Counted from the first letter of the stretch, positions 42,955 to 48,209 are shown. The stretch: 56,791 nucleotides of DNA from Candidatus Omnitrophota bacterium (GCA_021735655.1 JAIPGM010000011.1:1-56791), one strand, 5' to 3'. A program made the numbers and translations. The notes: generated by a model from the sequence alone, not told the origin.

Positions 42955-43764
42955 ATGGGGAGTAGAAGACGTAAAAAGTTTAAACAGTTAAAGAAATTTA
43001 AAATTAAACTGAATCCGGTTGCAATTTGGACTGGATCTTTTCTACTTATTTTTTTAGCTTTATTTGGCAGCTTGGGCTACGCCGTCTATACTTCAAGTAT
43101 TTTTAAAGTCGGATCAGAGACTGTTCAGTCCAACCTAAAATTGAGTCAAGAAGTTAGAGCTAAGGTGGAGGGTGAGTCATTATTTGCTTTAAATATACAG
43201 CAGATAGTTAATTATATTTTAAAAGAGAATCCGGAATATAAAGCAGTGACCATTCTAAAAAAATTTCCTTCAACGCTTATAGTTAATATAGATAAACGAA
43301 TAGCTTATGCTCAGATAAAAGGAAGAAGGTTTTTCCCTTTAGATGAAGAAGGTATTCTTATTGATGAGGGGTCTTTTCAGCCTTTCGAAAATTTAATTGT
43401 TGTCGAGATTGGTAAAGATCCTCGGACCTTTAGCAAGGGCTATAAGTTACGTAGTAAAAATCTTGATTATGCCTTTGAGCTTATTTCTAGTTTGAAAAGG
43501 AGTAATATTTTTAATTCTCTGAGAGTGGAGTCGATTAATGCTACTCAACCGGAAGCACTTTATTTTATAGTTAATTTAGGGGGCGCTTTAAAGGAATCGG
43601 GGGGATTAGATAAAAAAATAAAGGTAATTGTTGGAAAAAATGATTTTTCGAGAAAATTAGCCCGTTTTGAGAGTGTAGTTAATATAAAATTTAAAGATAA
43701 ATTGGACCTTATCCAATACGTTGATCTACGTTACAAGGAAGTCTACGTTGGATTTAATCGTTAA
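42955..43764 (+). CDS. ftsQ: Cell division protein FtsQ/DivIB (POTRA domain)
   Basis: Basic N-terminus, one TM helix and a POTRA-like region, located after ddl. The ATG at 42955 is 7 nt downstream of an AAGGAGA Shine-Dalgarno; a TTG at 42949 is an alternative start. Confidence 0.7.
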   Translation: MGSRRRKKFKQLKKFKIKLNPVAIWTGSFLLIFLALFGSLGYAVYTSSIFKVGSETVQSNLKLSQEVRAKVEGESLFALNIQQIVNYILKENPEYKAVTILKKFPSTLIVNIDKRIAYAQIKGRRFFPLDEEGILIDEGSFQPFENLIVVEIGKDPRTFSKGYKLRSKNLDYAFELISSLKRSNIFNSLRVESINATQPEALYFIVNLGGALKESGGLDKKIKVIVGKNDFSRKLARFESVVNIKFKDKLDLIQYVDLRYKEVYVGFNR

Positions 43765-43788
43765 AATTTAATTTTATCTATTTTAAGT

Positions 43789-44959: not shown

Positions 44960-46882
44960 ATGGATAAACAAAAACAATACGAATCATTTTTGAAAAGCCT
45001 ACGTGTAGCGCTCACTAATGTCTCTATTTATTTTAAAGACCATCCGATTTTTGTAAAATCTACTCAGGATTTAAAAAGAAAAATAGTTGATCTTTTCCAG
45101 TTTACGAGTCCCTTGGAGGTTGAAATCACTTATAATTCTTTATCTTGTAATGGAGAGCAACTCAAAATTTCGGATTTAGTTGAAAATGTGCGTAATTTTC
45201 TACATCAACGTAAGGTAAAGAGAATTAAAATTGAGAAAGGGGTTTCGGTTGAGGATCTGACTATTTTTCTTCAGAAAGTCAGCCTATCCCCTAAAGATAT
45301 TGTACTGAATGGCGGTTTAAAGGTAATCCTCGATCAGGAGAAAATGCAGAATATTGATGTAGAGGATTTAGATTATTCAAACCTTTTGGTGGACGAAAGT
45401 CTAGAGTATAAGTATAGCTGGTTTTATCTTTTGAGGAAAGGGTTAAAAAATAATGATACTGCCAAGTTGCAACTTTTAGCGGATACTTTTGAAAAAATGT
45501 TAACTCAATTTGATATTGGGGATCCAGTTGACCTGAAAGAGCTGGAGCTAATCGTCGGTGATTTTTTTAAGTATTTGCGGCAAAATGATAAAAATAGATT
45601 CTTGGGGTGTCTCGGCGCTTTTGTGAAACTAATTTTGGAATCACCCCAGGCGGTGAATTTAGACGTTAGCAAGATTAAGGAAACTATCATTGACTTAGAG
45701 CCGGATGATTTAGCGTCAATTATATTTTCTAAATTAGAAAGCGTTAAGAATTTTGACTCATTAAATTTTAATATATTCTCCAAGCTGGTTAAGCGCGAAA
45801 ATCATGAAAAAATAGCGAATTCTTTAGCTAAAAAGCTTGAACAAGAAAGATGGATTAAGGATAACCCGCAGGCCATCGAGAAGATTAAAAGTATTTTTTC
45901 TTTACCTGAAGATTCTTATATATCAGAAGTTTACCAGCACAGCCTTTCTTCAATTTTATCAACTATTTCTCTGGGGGACGGAAGTTCTTTTGACCGTAAA
46001 CACTTAAAAAGTAACTATCGGCTTATGCTTTTAGATTTATTGAGGCTCGAGACTGAGCATGAGCGGCTTGATATAGTTATCGATCGAATCTTAGCAGAAC
46101 TCTCGGATTGTTTTCATAATAAGGATAGAGATTATGTTGATAAATTTATTGATGTTTTTCAGAGCCGTCGGGGCAACGACAGAGATTCGGCTTTTTTTCC
46201 CAGCGAGATCGATCAGCGAATAAGTGATTTTATTGAGGATGTGGTTTTTTCAAGTGGAGTAACTTTTGATTTCGCGAGACTCATTTCAATTATGCAAAAA
46301 AGTACTCGGGATTATCAATTTTATCTAAATAAGATTTTTAAAGAGCAGCCACCTAATAAATATGCTTTTCAGATATTTTTTAAGTTTTTTTCTAAAGAAA
46401 CGAGTCGCTTTTGCCAGCAGGTTAAGCTTAACAGTAGTAATGTTAAGCTTAACAAAGTCATTGTTGAGAGATTAAAAAGCATTAATCCCCAAATAGCTTT
46501 AATAGTTTTTAAACGCATTTTTGCTTTTTCAAATAAGTTTATAAAACTAGATATTCTTAAAACGATACAGGAGTTAAAACTTTACGATGAAGCATTTTTA
46601 TTTTTAATTTTGAGCACTGAAAAGGCTATTCTTCGCAAGCAGGCTTTTTTGGTTTTAGTAGAACATCGTTCAGCGCGAGTTAAGCTGGCCCGTGAACTTT
46701 TGTCACTTGATAATTCTTTTGGTATACAGACGAGACTTCTTAAGGAGAATATGAGGCTTATCGACGAAAAATATTTTCCCGAGGCTAAAAAGTATCTGGT
46801 TGTTATAACTCAATATAAATTCTTTTGGAACCGGGCTGTCAGAAGAAAGGCTAATGCTATTTTAACTAAATATGGAAATTAA
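44960..46882 (+). CDS. Hypothetical 640-aa protein; N-terminal ~100 aa paralogous to the N-terminal domain of the downstream HD-GYP protein
   Basis: No catalytic motifs recognised; predicted largely alpha-helical. Residues 10–110 align with residues 8–105 of the next ORF (FL..…IY..HP.F..S…C.GE…RI…KGV..E…F). Confidence 0.6.
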   Translation: MDKQKQYESFLKSLRVALTNVSIYFKDHPIFVKSTQDLKRKIVDLFQFTSPLEVEITYNSLSCNGEQLKISDLVENVRNFLHQRKVKRIKIEKGVSVEDLTIFLQKVSLSPKDIVLNGGLKVILDQEKMQNIDVEDLDYSNLLVDESLEYKYSWFYLLRKGLKNNDTAKLQLLADTFEKMLTQFDIGDPVDLKELELIVGDFFKYLRQNDKNRFLGCLGAFVKLILESPQAVNLDVSKIKETIIDLEPDDLASIIFSKLESVKNFDSLNFNIFSKLVKRENHEKIANSLAKKLEQERWIKDNPQAIEKIKSIFSLPEDSYISEVYQHSLSSILSTISLGDGSSFDRKHLKSNYRLMLLDLLRLETEHERLDIVIDRILAELSDCFHNKDRDYVDKFIDVFQSRRGNDRDSAFFPSEIDQRISDFIEDVVFSSGVTFDFARLISIMQKSTRDYQFYLNKIFKEQPPNKYAFQIFFKFFSKETSRFCQQVKLNSSNVKLNKVIVERLKSINPQIALIVFKRIFAFSNKFIKLDILKTIQELKLYDEAFLFLILSTEKAILRKQAFLVLVEHRSARVKLARELLSLDNSFGIQTRLLKENMRLIDEKYFPEAKKYLVVITQYKFFWNRAVRRKANAILTKYGN

Positions 46883-48209
46883 TATAATCGAGAAATTTTT
46901 ACGTGAGTTTATCTCGACCTGGCAAGTTGCAAAGATTTACGGGATTGAACATCCACGATTTTTGAGCTCTTTAGACGTAGTGTTCGATAATTTAGAGCCA
47001 ATACTTATTGCGAAAAAAGAATTAATTATTGGGGTGGTTGGATCGGAATTTGCCTGCGGTGAAGATATCTTTTTTGAACTTAGCCAAAAATCAGGTTTAG
47101 CAATTGCTCAGTTAAAAGAAAAAGGCATTGAAAGAATTATTTTCCAAAAAGGTGTAGACAAAGAAGAGGTTTCCCAGTTCATATCGCTCTTGGTGGTTCC
47201 GCAAACTCAAATTGAGGGTGAATTCAAAGATTACTTATCGGTTATTGGCATAAAAAATATTAGAGTGGGCAAGATTATTGAGTCGGATTTAGGTCCGGTT
47301 GATAAAGATGGATCGAATTTTGATAAAATTGATAAGTATAAAGATTGCTTAGATAAGGTATCTAAATCTTTGGATTCTTTAATTGATGAGGATAAGGTTG
47401 ATTTTTTAAAGGTTAAATTTGTTACTAATGCGATTATGGACAACTTATCGGATAGTTATCAGATATTTTTATCGCTTTCGGAAGTAAAAAATTATGATAG
47501 TGCAACTTTCGTGCATCTTTTAAACGTAAGTGTACTTTCGATTTATTTTTCACATAAATTAGGTTTGGGCCGTGATGATTGTCTTGATATAGGAGTTTCA
47601 GCTCTTTTGCATGATATCGGAAAGCTTTCTATTTCTCGAAAAATAATTCAAAAGTCAGGCAAACTAAAGGATGAGGAGTTTACCAAGATTAAAAGCCATA
47701 CAATTTTAGGGGCAGAGATTCTTTTGCATCATTCTGATAAGTTAGGGGTTTTACCGGCAATCGTTGCCTTTGAGCACCACTTGGGGTGGGATAGCAAGGG
47801 GTATCCTAAGATTAGTTTTTCTCGGAGGCCGCATTTAGCCTCTTCGATTGTCCATATTTGTGATGAGTATGATGCCCTTACTCAACGCCGTTCTTATAAG
47901 AGAGATTATCCGCCAGAGATAGTTTATCAAATAATGAATAAGCAGAAAGGGGCTAAATTTTCTCCGAAATTGCTGGATAAGTTTTTTAAAATACTAGGTC
48001 TTTGGCCAAAAGGAAGTATCGTGCGTTTGAGCGATTCCAGAATAGCTGTGGTGCGTCAGCCGAATGAGGAGGATATCTATCGACCCCAAGTTGAGATTGT
48101 TTCTGATTCGGCCGGAGAGATGGTCGATTTATCAAGTAATCCTGAGATTGGGATACGTCACGCCCTTAATCCTTTGACTGAGGGCAAACAGTATCTTAGA
48201 TTTATATAA
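46872..48209 (+). CDS. HD-GYP domain phosphodiesterase (c-di-GMP/cyclic dinucleotide hydrolase family) with N-terminal domain of unknown function
   Basis: HD motif LLHDIGK and HHLGWDSKGYP (HHxxxDxxGYP). Its start overlaps the previous gene by 11 nt, which suggests translational coupling. Confidence 0.8.
   Translation: MEINIIEKFLREFISTWQVAKIYGIEHPRFLSSLDVVFDNLEPILIAKKELIIGVVGSEFACGEDIFFELSQKSGLAIAQLKEKGIERIIFQKGVDKEEVSQFISLLVVPQTQIEGEFKDYLSVIGIKNIRVGKIIESDLGPVDKDGSNFDKIDKYKDCLDKVSKSLDSLIDEDKVDFLKVKFVTNAIMDNLSDSYQIFLSLSEVKNYDSATFVHLLNVSVLSIYFSHKLGLGRDDCLDIGVSALLHDIGKLSISRKIIQKSGKLKDEEFTKIKSHTILGAEILLHHSDKLGVLPAIVAFEHHLGWDSKGYPKISFSRRPHLASSIVHICDEYDALTQRRSYKRDYPPEIVYQIMNKQKGAKFSPKLLDKFFKILGLWPKGSIVRLSDSRIAVVRQPNEEDIYRPQVEIVSDSAGEMVDLSSNPEIGIRHALNPLTEGKQYLRFI

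Follow-up and report, generated by a model that had tools for sequence, protein, structure and literature searches.

A divergent FtsA and a conserved p640/HD-GYP gene pair at the end of an Omnitrophota dcw cluster

Results and Discussion

The region examined here is the 3′ end of an Omnitrophota dcw (division and cell wall) cluster, which in this phylum ends at ftsA and lacks ftsZ. It lies on a 56,791-bp stretch of DNA (the window), an entire contig of a Candidatus Omnitrophica metagenome-assembled genome (MAG), and comprises ftsQ, a gene for an FtsA-like protein of 381 amino acids (aa), a 640-aa open reading frame (ORF) that we call p640, and a gene for a 445-aa HD-GYP protein. The conserved unit is the pair of p640 and the HD-GYP gene, not a trio with ftsA; the pair is stably attached to ftsA in a single clade. 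We favor, with moderate confidence, a composite reading in which a dcw cluster without FtsZ ends in an FtsA that works as an adaptor, and in which a self-contained p640/HD-GYP module, known to date from Omnitrophota only, has been placed after ftsA in one clade.

The four ORFs lie where an initial annotation of the sequence had placed them (its ftsQ start, 42955, is the first ATG of the ORF), and the spacings it gave, 25 nt between the FtsA-like gene and p640 and an 11-nt overlap between p640 and the HD-GYP gene, are also correct; 24 nt separate ftsQ from the FtsA-like gene. Its descriptions of the first product as FtsA-like with degenerate ATP motifs, of the 640-aa protein as one without an assigned function, of the 445-aa protein as an HD-GYP enzyme, and of the window as free of an FtsZ signature all agree with the evidence given below. 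The novelty that it saw in a link between a second-messenger hydrolase and the divisome does not hold as a concept, since links between cyclic di-GMP (c-di-GMP) enzymes and division are known in other bacteria.

The p640/HD-GYP pair and its genomic contexts

Exact database look-ups of the FtsA-like and p640 proteins of the window returned no record, and the genomic context was therefore taken from homologues. The ftsA-centered survey combined 13 species-level genome loci, looked-up contigs and three ftsA-adjacent loci from the p640 survey, giving 22 distinct loci. The p640-centered survey retrieved 80 metagenome loci, 75 of which extend far enough to show the next gene. The HD-GYP gene stands right after p640 in all 75 of these and in all genome loci. 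The gene upstream of p640 varies: across the 80 loci it encodes glutamate dehydrogenase (18), a Glu-synthase-like protein (8–9), a gltD-like protein (5–6), an unknown 165-aa protein (5–6), a small HD protein (4), a PAS-GGDEF cyclase (3–4), ATP synthase subunits (2–4) or an FtsA-like protein (3). Downstream, pyrG, carA/carAB and DUF1846 are frequent neighbors. Database look-ups of homologues made before this survey agree with it. In a neighbor-joining tree of 95 unique p640 sequences, the 19 copies adjacent to ftsA all group in a single clade. Because the contexts vary and the ftsA-adjacent copies all fall together, we regard the pair as the invariant unit. A small tree had pointed to an ancestral dcw-linked position for the family as a whole, an idea that we dropped after the 95-sequence tree showed a single dcw-linked clade.

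The order ftsQ, ftsA-like, p640, HD-GYP is found in 19 of the 22 distinct ftsA-like loci, with gaps of 0–88 nt. The synteny of the trio that the initial annotation had put forward thus stands for these relatives, and what did not stand is the trio as the conserved unit, the linkage to ftsA being limited to one clade. The pair is absent from this site in three lineages (L008/L009/L018, L017 and L020), where the ftsA-like gene is followed directly by a gene for a monogalactosyldiacylglycerol (MGDG)-synthase-like protein and the flanks are unchanged. A marker tree places these three lineages at scattered points among those that carry the pair.

The junction between the two genes ranges from −11 to +11 nt across 23 measured loci and is exactly −11 nt in 11 of them. 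Most lineages conserve the 11-nt overlap seen in the window, which suggests translational coupling of p640 and the HD-GYP gene, as the annotation had proposed.

Individual clades carry other genes close to the pair. In one clade (L049–L051 and L058; about 4900–5808 in L051), the gene directly upstream, on the same strand as the pair, encodes a PAS-GGDEF diguanylate cyclase. A second, shorter HD-GYP (HD_5) gene is found just upstream, in divergent orientation, in L055, L056 and L061 (4637–5596 on the minus strand of L056). In the clade of L045, L047, L053 and L082, a small gene for a plain HD-domain protein lies upstream on the same strand.

All named homologues come from Candidatus Omnitrophica/Omnitrophota. 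Several database labels depart from this assignment. One contig of 87 kb (L014, JAIWAR010000001.1), which carries the pair and a bacterial dcw cluster, was deposited in a ‘Methanosarcinales archaeon’ MAG, and L010, L012, L015, L016, L019 and L022 are among contigs labelled ‘uncultured Planctomycetia’. Mis-binning or mislabelling of Omnitrophota contigs probably explains these labels. The archaeal bin is noteworthy, since an epibiotic or predatory life on methanogens has been described for Omnitrophota such as Velamenicoccus.

The p640 family comprises 328 representative clusters at E<1e-30, all of about 640 aa. The protein has no Pfam or NCBIfam match. It consists of an N-terminal α/β domain and a C-terminal HEAT-like α-solenoid, in which no catalytic motif was recognized. 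The resemblance of this solenoid to HEAT/ARM scaffolds such as AP-1 beta, importins and eIF3a is generic and at the level of the fold. Unlike these scaffolds, p640 gives no sequence match to the HEAT/ARM repeat models of Pfam, and its N-terminal α/β domain is specific to the family; one NCBI homologue is labelled ‘HEAT repeat domain-containing’.

The HD-GYP protein begins with a domain that is paralogous to the N-terminal domain of p640. The relationship is faint by BLASTP (22% identity, E 0.037) and clear when the N-termini of the two families are compared by hhalign (probability 98.5%, E 3.2e-15, 136 columns). Residues Y24, H28 and P29, forming a ‘Y...HP’ motif, are conserved in the N-terminal domains of both families, and the two proteins have no detectable relationship outside this domain. 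A search of a 5.8-billion-sequence database with the profile of the shared domain found 17 short fragments only and no other architectures. No transmembrane segments are predicted in either protein, and both are predicted to be soluble and cytoplasmic.

A defense-system origin of the mobile pair was considered and rejected: the FtsA-like protein and p640 gave no match to the PADLOC models, and the HD-GYP protein gave only weak, generic HD matches (Cas3/Cas10 HD, E ≥ 2e-4).

We propose that p640 and the HD-GYP protein would be made in fixed proportion and would form a complex through their shared N-terminal domains. In this complex, the solenoid of p640 would offer the cyclic-dinucleotide phosphodiesterase a scaffold or a regulatory platform. 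In the clade of the window, the module is probably read through from the dcw operon, and its expression may therefore follow envelope growth. The module itself is not intrinsically a division component, because in other clades it stands behind glutamate-metabolism, ATP synthase or GGDEF genes, and because three close relatives have no copy at this site.

Several points weigh against the composite reading. Within the clade of the window the order is stable at identities down to 33% for the FtsA-like protein and down to 28% for p640, and locus L027 keeps the order ftsA-p640-HD-GYP even with different genes downstream. This is the pattern that a real functional operon would give. The shared N-terminal domain has no family-model match and no detectable fold relative, so dimerization is just one option for its function; p640 and the HD-GYP protein could instead both sense the same ligand through it. 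Complex formation, the substrate and co-transcription are all inferences. As for FtsZ, the negative result for this MAG covers one contig, and a 2025 iScience paper calls the dcw genes of Omnitrophota ‘highly conserved’ and does not exclude ftsZ.

In an alternative reading, which builds on the initial annotation, the pair would be a real divisome accessory in this clade, transcribed together with ftsQ and ftsA, and the degenerate FtsA would recruit it, perhaps via the solenoid. Local degradation of c-di-GMP would then license septal peptidoglycan synthesis in a machine without FtsZ. The 19 conserved loci with their short gaps, the persistence of the linkage in L027 and the failure to detect a terminator between the genes are all in keeping with this idea, and the lack of FtsZ from the phylum makes non-canonical partners of FtsA plausible. 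Against it, the linkage is limited to one clade of the p640 tree, and most pairs in the p640-centered sample adjoin gdh, gltBD, atp, GGDEF or other genes, upstream of pyrG/carAB. The three lineages that lack the pair at this site still have an FtsA-like protein with all family-invariant residues.

The packing of the genome also limits what adjacency can say. Essentially the entire contig is a single head-to-tail array on the plus strand. It comprises 59 co-directional genes with a mixture of functions, separated by a median of 9.5 nt, and 76% of the intergenic gaps along the contig are no longer than 30 nt. Close spacing proves little in such an array. The argument of the initial annotation from tight spacing to co-transcription is thus non-specific, and gene order in related genomes is kept even for unrelated genes such as pcm. 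Adjacency and short gaps are weak evidence for shared function in these tightly packed, co-directional genomes. A terminator or separate promoter between the genes, which the annotation had named as a point that could overturn its view, was not found: promoter and terminator scans and folding of four intergenic gaps gave no signal beyond shuffled controls. The 60-nt gap 3′ of the HD-GYP gene (48210–48269) contains an imperfect hairpin, GGGUAA...UUACCC, of −11.9 kcal/mol, which lacks a U-tract and whose stability does not exceed that of shuffled sequence (z −0.9).

Taken with these results, co-transcription of the pair with the dcw genes is plausible, a dedicated link of the pair to cell division is not established, and we consider the divisome-accessory explanation unlikely. 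A fuller version, in which the pair has been recruited in this clade into an FtsZ-independent divisome, a nucleotide-blind, membrane-tethered FtsA docks the p640 solenoid where the cell divides, and the HD-GYP protein clears c-di-GMP locally and thereby triggers septal wall synthesis, seems to us quite improbable; if true, it would describe a second-messenger-gated division machine with FtsA but not FtsZ. The known cases in which c-di-GMP enzymes are tied to division (YfiN/DgcN of E. coli, and cases in Caulobacter and Streptomyces) share with the present locus the general idea of coupling cyclic-di-GMP metabolism to the divisome. They differ in being experimental, in mostly involving cyclases or effectors that act on FtsZ, and in lying outside the dcw cluster, whereas here there is a clade-specific gene adjacency only.

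The HD-GYP domain and its substrate

The 445-aa protein scores 59.7 bits against PF13487 (HD_5; cutoff 27.2) and carries the HDIGK and GYP motifs. Its domain matches that of PmGH, the c-di-GMP phosphodiesterase of Persephonella marina (PDB 4MCW), with an E value of 1.5e-26 over about 190 aligned residues, including the H/HD/H/HH/D ligands and GYP. Residues H215, H247-D248, K251, H276, H302-H303, G310-Y311-P312, D331 and D334 are invariant in 14 members of the family, and the metal-ligand set H...HD...H...HH...D, together with GYP, is complete in the HD-GYP protein. As judged from these residues, the domain is catalytically intact. It differs from PmGH at the third-metal ligand of that enzyme, E185. 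The aligned position, 211, is occupied by A, S, V, T, G, N or I across the family and is not conserved; because this ligand position is variable, a binuclear metal center is probable. No relationship to PmGH is detectable in the N-terminal domain, and none of the solved HD-GYP structures matched here has the shared N-terminal domain. A further difference from PmGH is that the HD-GYP gene is here always accompanied by a partner gene with the same N-terminal domain.

The substrate is most likely c-di-GMP, which we favor because a PAS-GGDEF cyclase is encoded directly upstream of the pair in one clade. The HD-GYP protein could instead act on another nucleotide (3′3′-cyclic GMP-AMP (cGAMP), pGpG or another phosphoester), or it could be mainly a ligand-sensing adaptor with p640 as its effector. 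HD-GYP enzymes specific for cGAMP exist, and one structure, 5z7c, is among the PDB matches; the loss of the third-metal Glu and the many pair loci that adjoin the pyrimidine genes pyrG and carAB would also suit such a protein. The invariance of all metal ligands and of GYP, as expected of an active HD-GYP enzyme, together with the position of the cyclase gene, speaks against these options, and a different role for the protein is in our view rather unlikely.

Absence of ftsZ

A six-frame search of the window turned up neither GGGTG[ST]G nor any looser FtsZ motif, and tblastn with B. subtilis FtsZ gave no match in it. Pfam scans covered the main plus-strand ORFs of the window other than murE to murC of the dcw core, and found no tubulin/FtsZ, GGDEF or PilZ domain in the scanned ORFs. 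The dcw cluster ends at the FtsA-like gene in every related locus, and ftsZ follows ftsA in none of the 22 distinct ftsA-like loci. About 1.23 Mb of sequence from related loci, searched by tblastn for FtsZ, also gave no match, a local sampling that says little about whole genomes.

These observations fit published surveys, and with them the suggestion of the initial annotation that ftsZ has been relocated or lost. Pende et al. 2021 (PMC8178401) report that Planctomycetes, Omnitrophica and Chlamydiae have no FtsZ; of these three, only Planctomycetes and Chlamydiae also lack FtsA. In their Supplementary Data 2 (columns FtsZ, SepF and FtsA), FtsZ is missing from four Omnitrophica genomes, and three of the four have FtsA. 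Among genomes labelled Omnitrophica, FtsZ was found only in ‘Omnitrophica bacterium OLB16’, likewise the sole FtsZ-positive ‘Omnitrophica’ in Rivas-Marin et al. 2016, who left undecided whether the absence is real or reflects incomplete data. OLB16 (taxid 1617433) is now placed in Candidatus Hinthialibacterota in the NCBI classification, and with this reclassification the phylum loses its only published record of FtsZ. Neither cell division nor c-di-GMP is treated in the main genomics papers on Omnitrophota.

It is possible that ftsZ lies elsewhere in the genome, relocated or on an unbinned contig, and that the FtsA-like protein is a fast-evolving but conventional FtsZ tether. The single-contig scope, the caution of Rivas-Marin et al. 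2016 and the high conservation reported in the iScience paper all lean this way. Set against them, FtsZ is missing from each of the four genuine Omnitrophica genomes of Pende et al. 2021, three of which retain FtsA, and the sole FtsZ-positive ‘Omnitrophica’ has moved to another phylum. No relative has ftsZ following ftsA. In addition, the FtsA family is unusually divergent and has lost its phosphate-2 loop, which fits the loss of the usual partner. We consider a hidden ftsZ improbable; its loss has good support at the level of the phylum and is not proven for this MAG.

Among bacteria without FtsZ, the Chlamydiota and Planctomycetota of the Planctomycetes–Verrucomicrobia–Chlamydiae (PVC) group offer the closest comparison. 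Like the present contig, they keep ftsI, ftsW, ftsQ and the peptidoglycan-synthesis genes and have no ftsZ. They differ in having lost FtsA too, whereas Omnitrophota retain a divergent FtsA, and their dcw cluster is otherwise intact and contiguous.

The divergent FtsA

The 381-aa protein matches the TIGR01174 ftsA model with an E value of 6e-9 and 35.5 bits, below the cutoff of 175.85, and has no Pfam FtsA match of its own. Its 56 database homologues are 33–85% identical to it, all named ones are from Omnitrophota, and a few carry PF02491 (SHS2_FTSA). In the PDB, the family profile finds FtsA chains and no others (E 2e-8). The AlphaFold2 (AF2) model has a mean predicted local distance difference test score (pLDDT) of 87.6 and a predicted TM-score (pTM) of 0.86, and its best 19 Foldseek matches in the PDB are all FtsA over the full length (E 3.5e-23, TM 0.71), well ahead of PilM (about 0.5) and MreB (about 0.45). 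The model contains the actin-like FtsA fold with its four subdomains, the FtsA-specific 1C (SHS2) subdomain included, as in FtsA of E. coli (7Q6D), T. maritima (4A2A) and S. aureus (3WQT). The gene directly follows ftsQ at the end of the dcw cluster, the usual position of ftsA, and this order is identical in all related loci.

In contrast to known FtsA, with which it shares just 14–16% identity, the protein has degenerate nucleotide-binding motifs. The phosphate-2 motif ‘VVDIGGGT’ of E. coli is aligned to ‘VVMYCGYQ’ in the window protein and to ‘vvsidyeks’ in the profile, a segment that the family does not conserve (consensus S-I-x-Y-x-x-S), so that the DxGGGT loop is replaced and DIGGGT is gone; of the ‘GG’ in the adenosine motif, one invariant Gly is left. 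A further difference from known FtsA is that no ftsZ is adjacent and that the genome probably contains none.

At the C-terminus, the AF2 model has an amphipathic helix at aa 369–380 behind a disordered linker of low pLDDT, as in known FtsA. Global hhalign against E. coli FtsA, whose sequence was verified against the PDB alignment for residues 53–261, aligns ‘KSFLQRAVSIYREYF’ with the membrane-targeting sequence (MTS) ‘GSWIKRLNSWLRKEF’; the match to this helix takes in the C-terminal 15 residues of the window protein. The hydrophobic moment of the helix is 0.53, compared with 0.57 in E. coli FtsA, and the C-terminal block ‘S-x-x-x-G-x-L-x-Y-G’ (‘STxxGxLxYG’ in known FtsA) also aligns.

It is highly improbable that the 381-aa protein is instead another actin-fold protein, PilM-like or MreB-like, that stands after ftsQ by chance, as its low family score and lack of a Pfam match might suggest, given the structural ranking, PF02491 on some homologues, the canonical slot, and the aligned C-terminal block and MTS-like helix. 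On the model and its position, the gene is a real but very divergent ftsA, a positional and structural orthologue. Because the phosphate-2 loop is lost and the fold and membrane-targeting helix are kept, we propose that the protein most likely acts as a membrane-tethered, ATP-independent adaptor of the divisome. It seems unable to bind nucleotide and still able to bind membrane.

The dcw cluster and the rest of the contig

The features of the region are collected in Table 1. The cluster contains the canonical order mraZ-rsmH-ftsL-ftsI-murE-murF-mraY-murD-ftsW-murG-murC-murB-ddl-ftsQ-ftsA with one extra gene; for murE to murC, the assignment rests on position and on the genes called, with their Pfam families, in related loci. 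FtsQ scores barely over the cutoffs of PF08478 (24.3 bits) and PF03799 (25.0 bits), and its Kyte-Doolittle maximum is 2.12 at residue 24. The envelope genes downstream of the pair adjoin ftsA directly in the pair-less relatives L008, L017, L018 and L020, as judged from synteny.

Table 1. Features at the dcw end of the window (coordinates count from the first nucleotide of the window)
Feature	Position	Strand	Basis
Upstream dcw cluster: mraZ, rsmH, small FtsL-like ORF, ftsI, murE, murF, mraY, murD, ftsW, murG, Peptidase_MA-like insert, murC, murB, ddl	27942..42880	+	NCBIfam and Pfam
ddl	41945-42880	+	
ftsQ, bitopic: transmembrane helix aa 24-42, then POTRA and FtsQ/DivIB C-terminal domains	42949..43764	+	
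Divergent FtsA orthologue, 381 aa	43789..44934	+	TIGR01174, PDB profile match, AF2/Foldseek, position after ftsQ
p640, 640-aa ORF	44960-46882	+	
p640 N-terminal α/β domain, about aa 1-145	44960..45394	+	hhalign, alignment, AF2 secondary structure
p640 C-terminal all-α solenoid (HEAT/ARM-like), about 490 aa	45395..46882	+	
p640 stop/HD-GYP start overlap, 11 nt (ATGGAAATTAA)	46872..46882	+	
HD-GYP protein, 445 aa	46872-48209	+	
HD-GYP protein N-terminal domain, about aa 1-140, paralogous to p640 N-terminal domain	46872..47291	+	
HD-GYP catalytic domain, aa 205-375	47484..47996	+	PF13487, 4mcw alignment, column counts
Downstream envelope genes: MGDG-synthase-like GT28 (glycosyltransferase), LpxL-like acyltransferase, GT2	48270..50931	+	Pfam

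The extra gene, between murG and murC, encodes a 270-aa Peptidase_MA_2-like protein with an HExxH motif (38928–39740, plus strand). It keeps this exact position in all related loci (L003, L004, L006, L008 and L025–L027) and looks like an Omnitrophota-specific insertion in the dcw cluster.

The contig has a GC content of 37% and a strongly positive GC skew. Its 5′ part carries genes outside the dcw cluster (purE, glyA, nrdR, recG, plsX, fabHDGF, leuCDB, asd, truA, an xerC-like gene, rbfA, truB and ribF), followed by the dcw cluster and then by envelope glycosyltransferase genes, pcm, greA, nadA and mnmA. The sole Pfam-supported gene found on the minus strand encodes a pilin-like protein with an N-terminal methylation motif (20017–20637). 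Two genes encode domain fusions, one of Sua5/TsaC with a low-molecular-weight phosphotyrosine phosphatase (592–1656, plus strand) and one of a Macro domain with NUDIX (6203–7141, plus strand).

Conclusions

Omnitrophota that lack FtsZ and keep FtsA have already been tabulated (Pende et al. 2021, PMC8178401). The p640 family, the N-terminal domain that it shares with the HD-GYP protein, and the obligate pairing of the two genes appear to be undescribed.

How bacteria of the PVC group divide independently of FtsZ is a long-standing open question. The Omnitrophota are the one such lineage that keeps FtsA, and are hence a useful comparison with Chlamydiota and Planctomycetota. The p640/HD-GYP proteins are a large pair of protein families, with hundreds of clusters at 50% identity and no Pfam or NCBIfam model for the pair. 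They would represent an HD-GYP enzyme with an obligate partner that carries a paralogous domain, an arrangement relevant to how small-genome, host-dependent bacteria achieve specificity in signaling.

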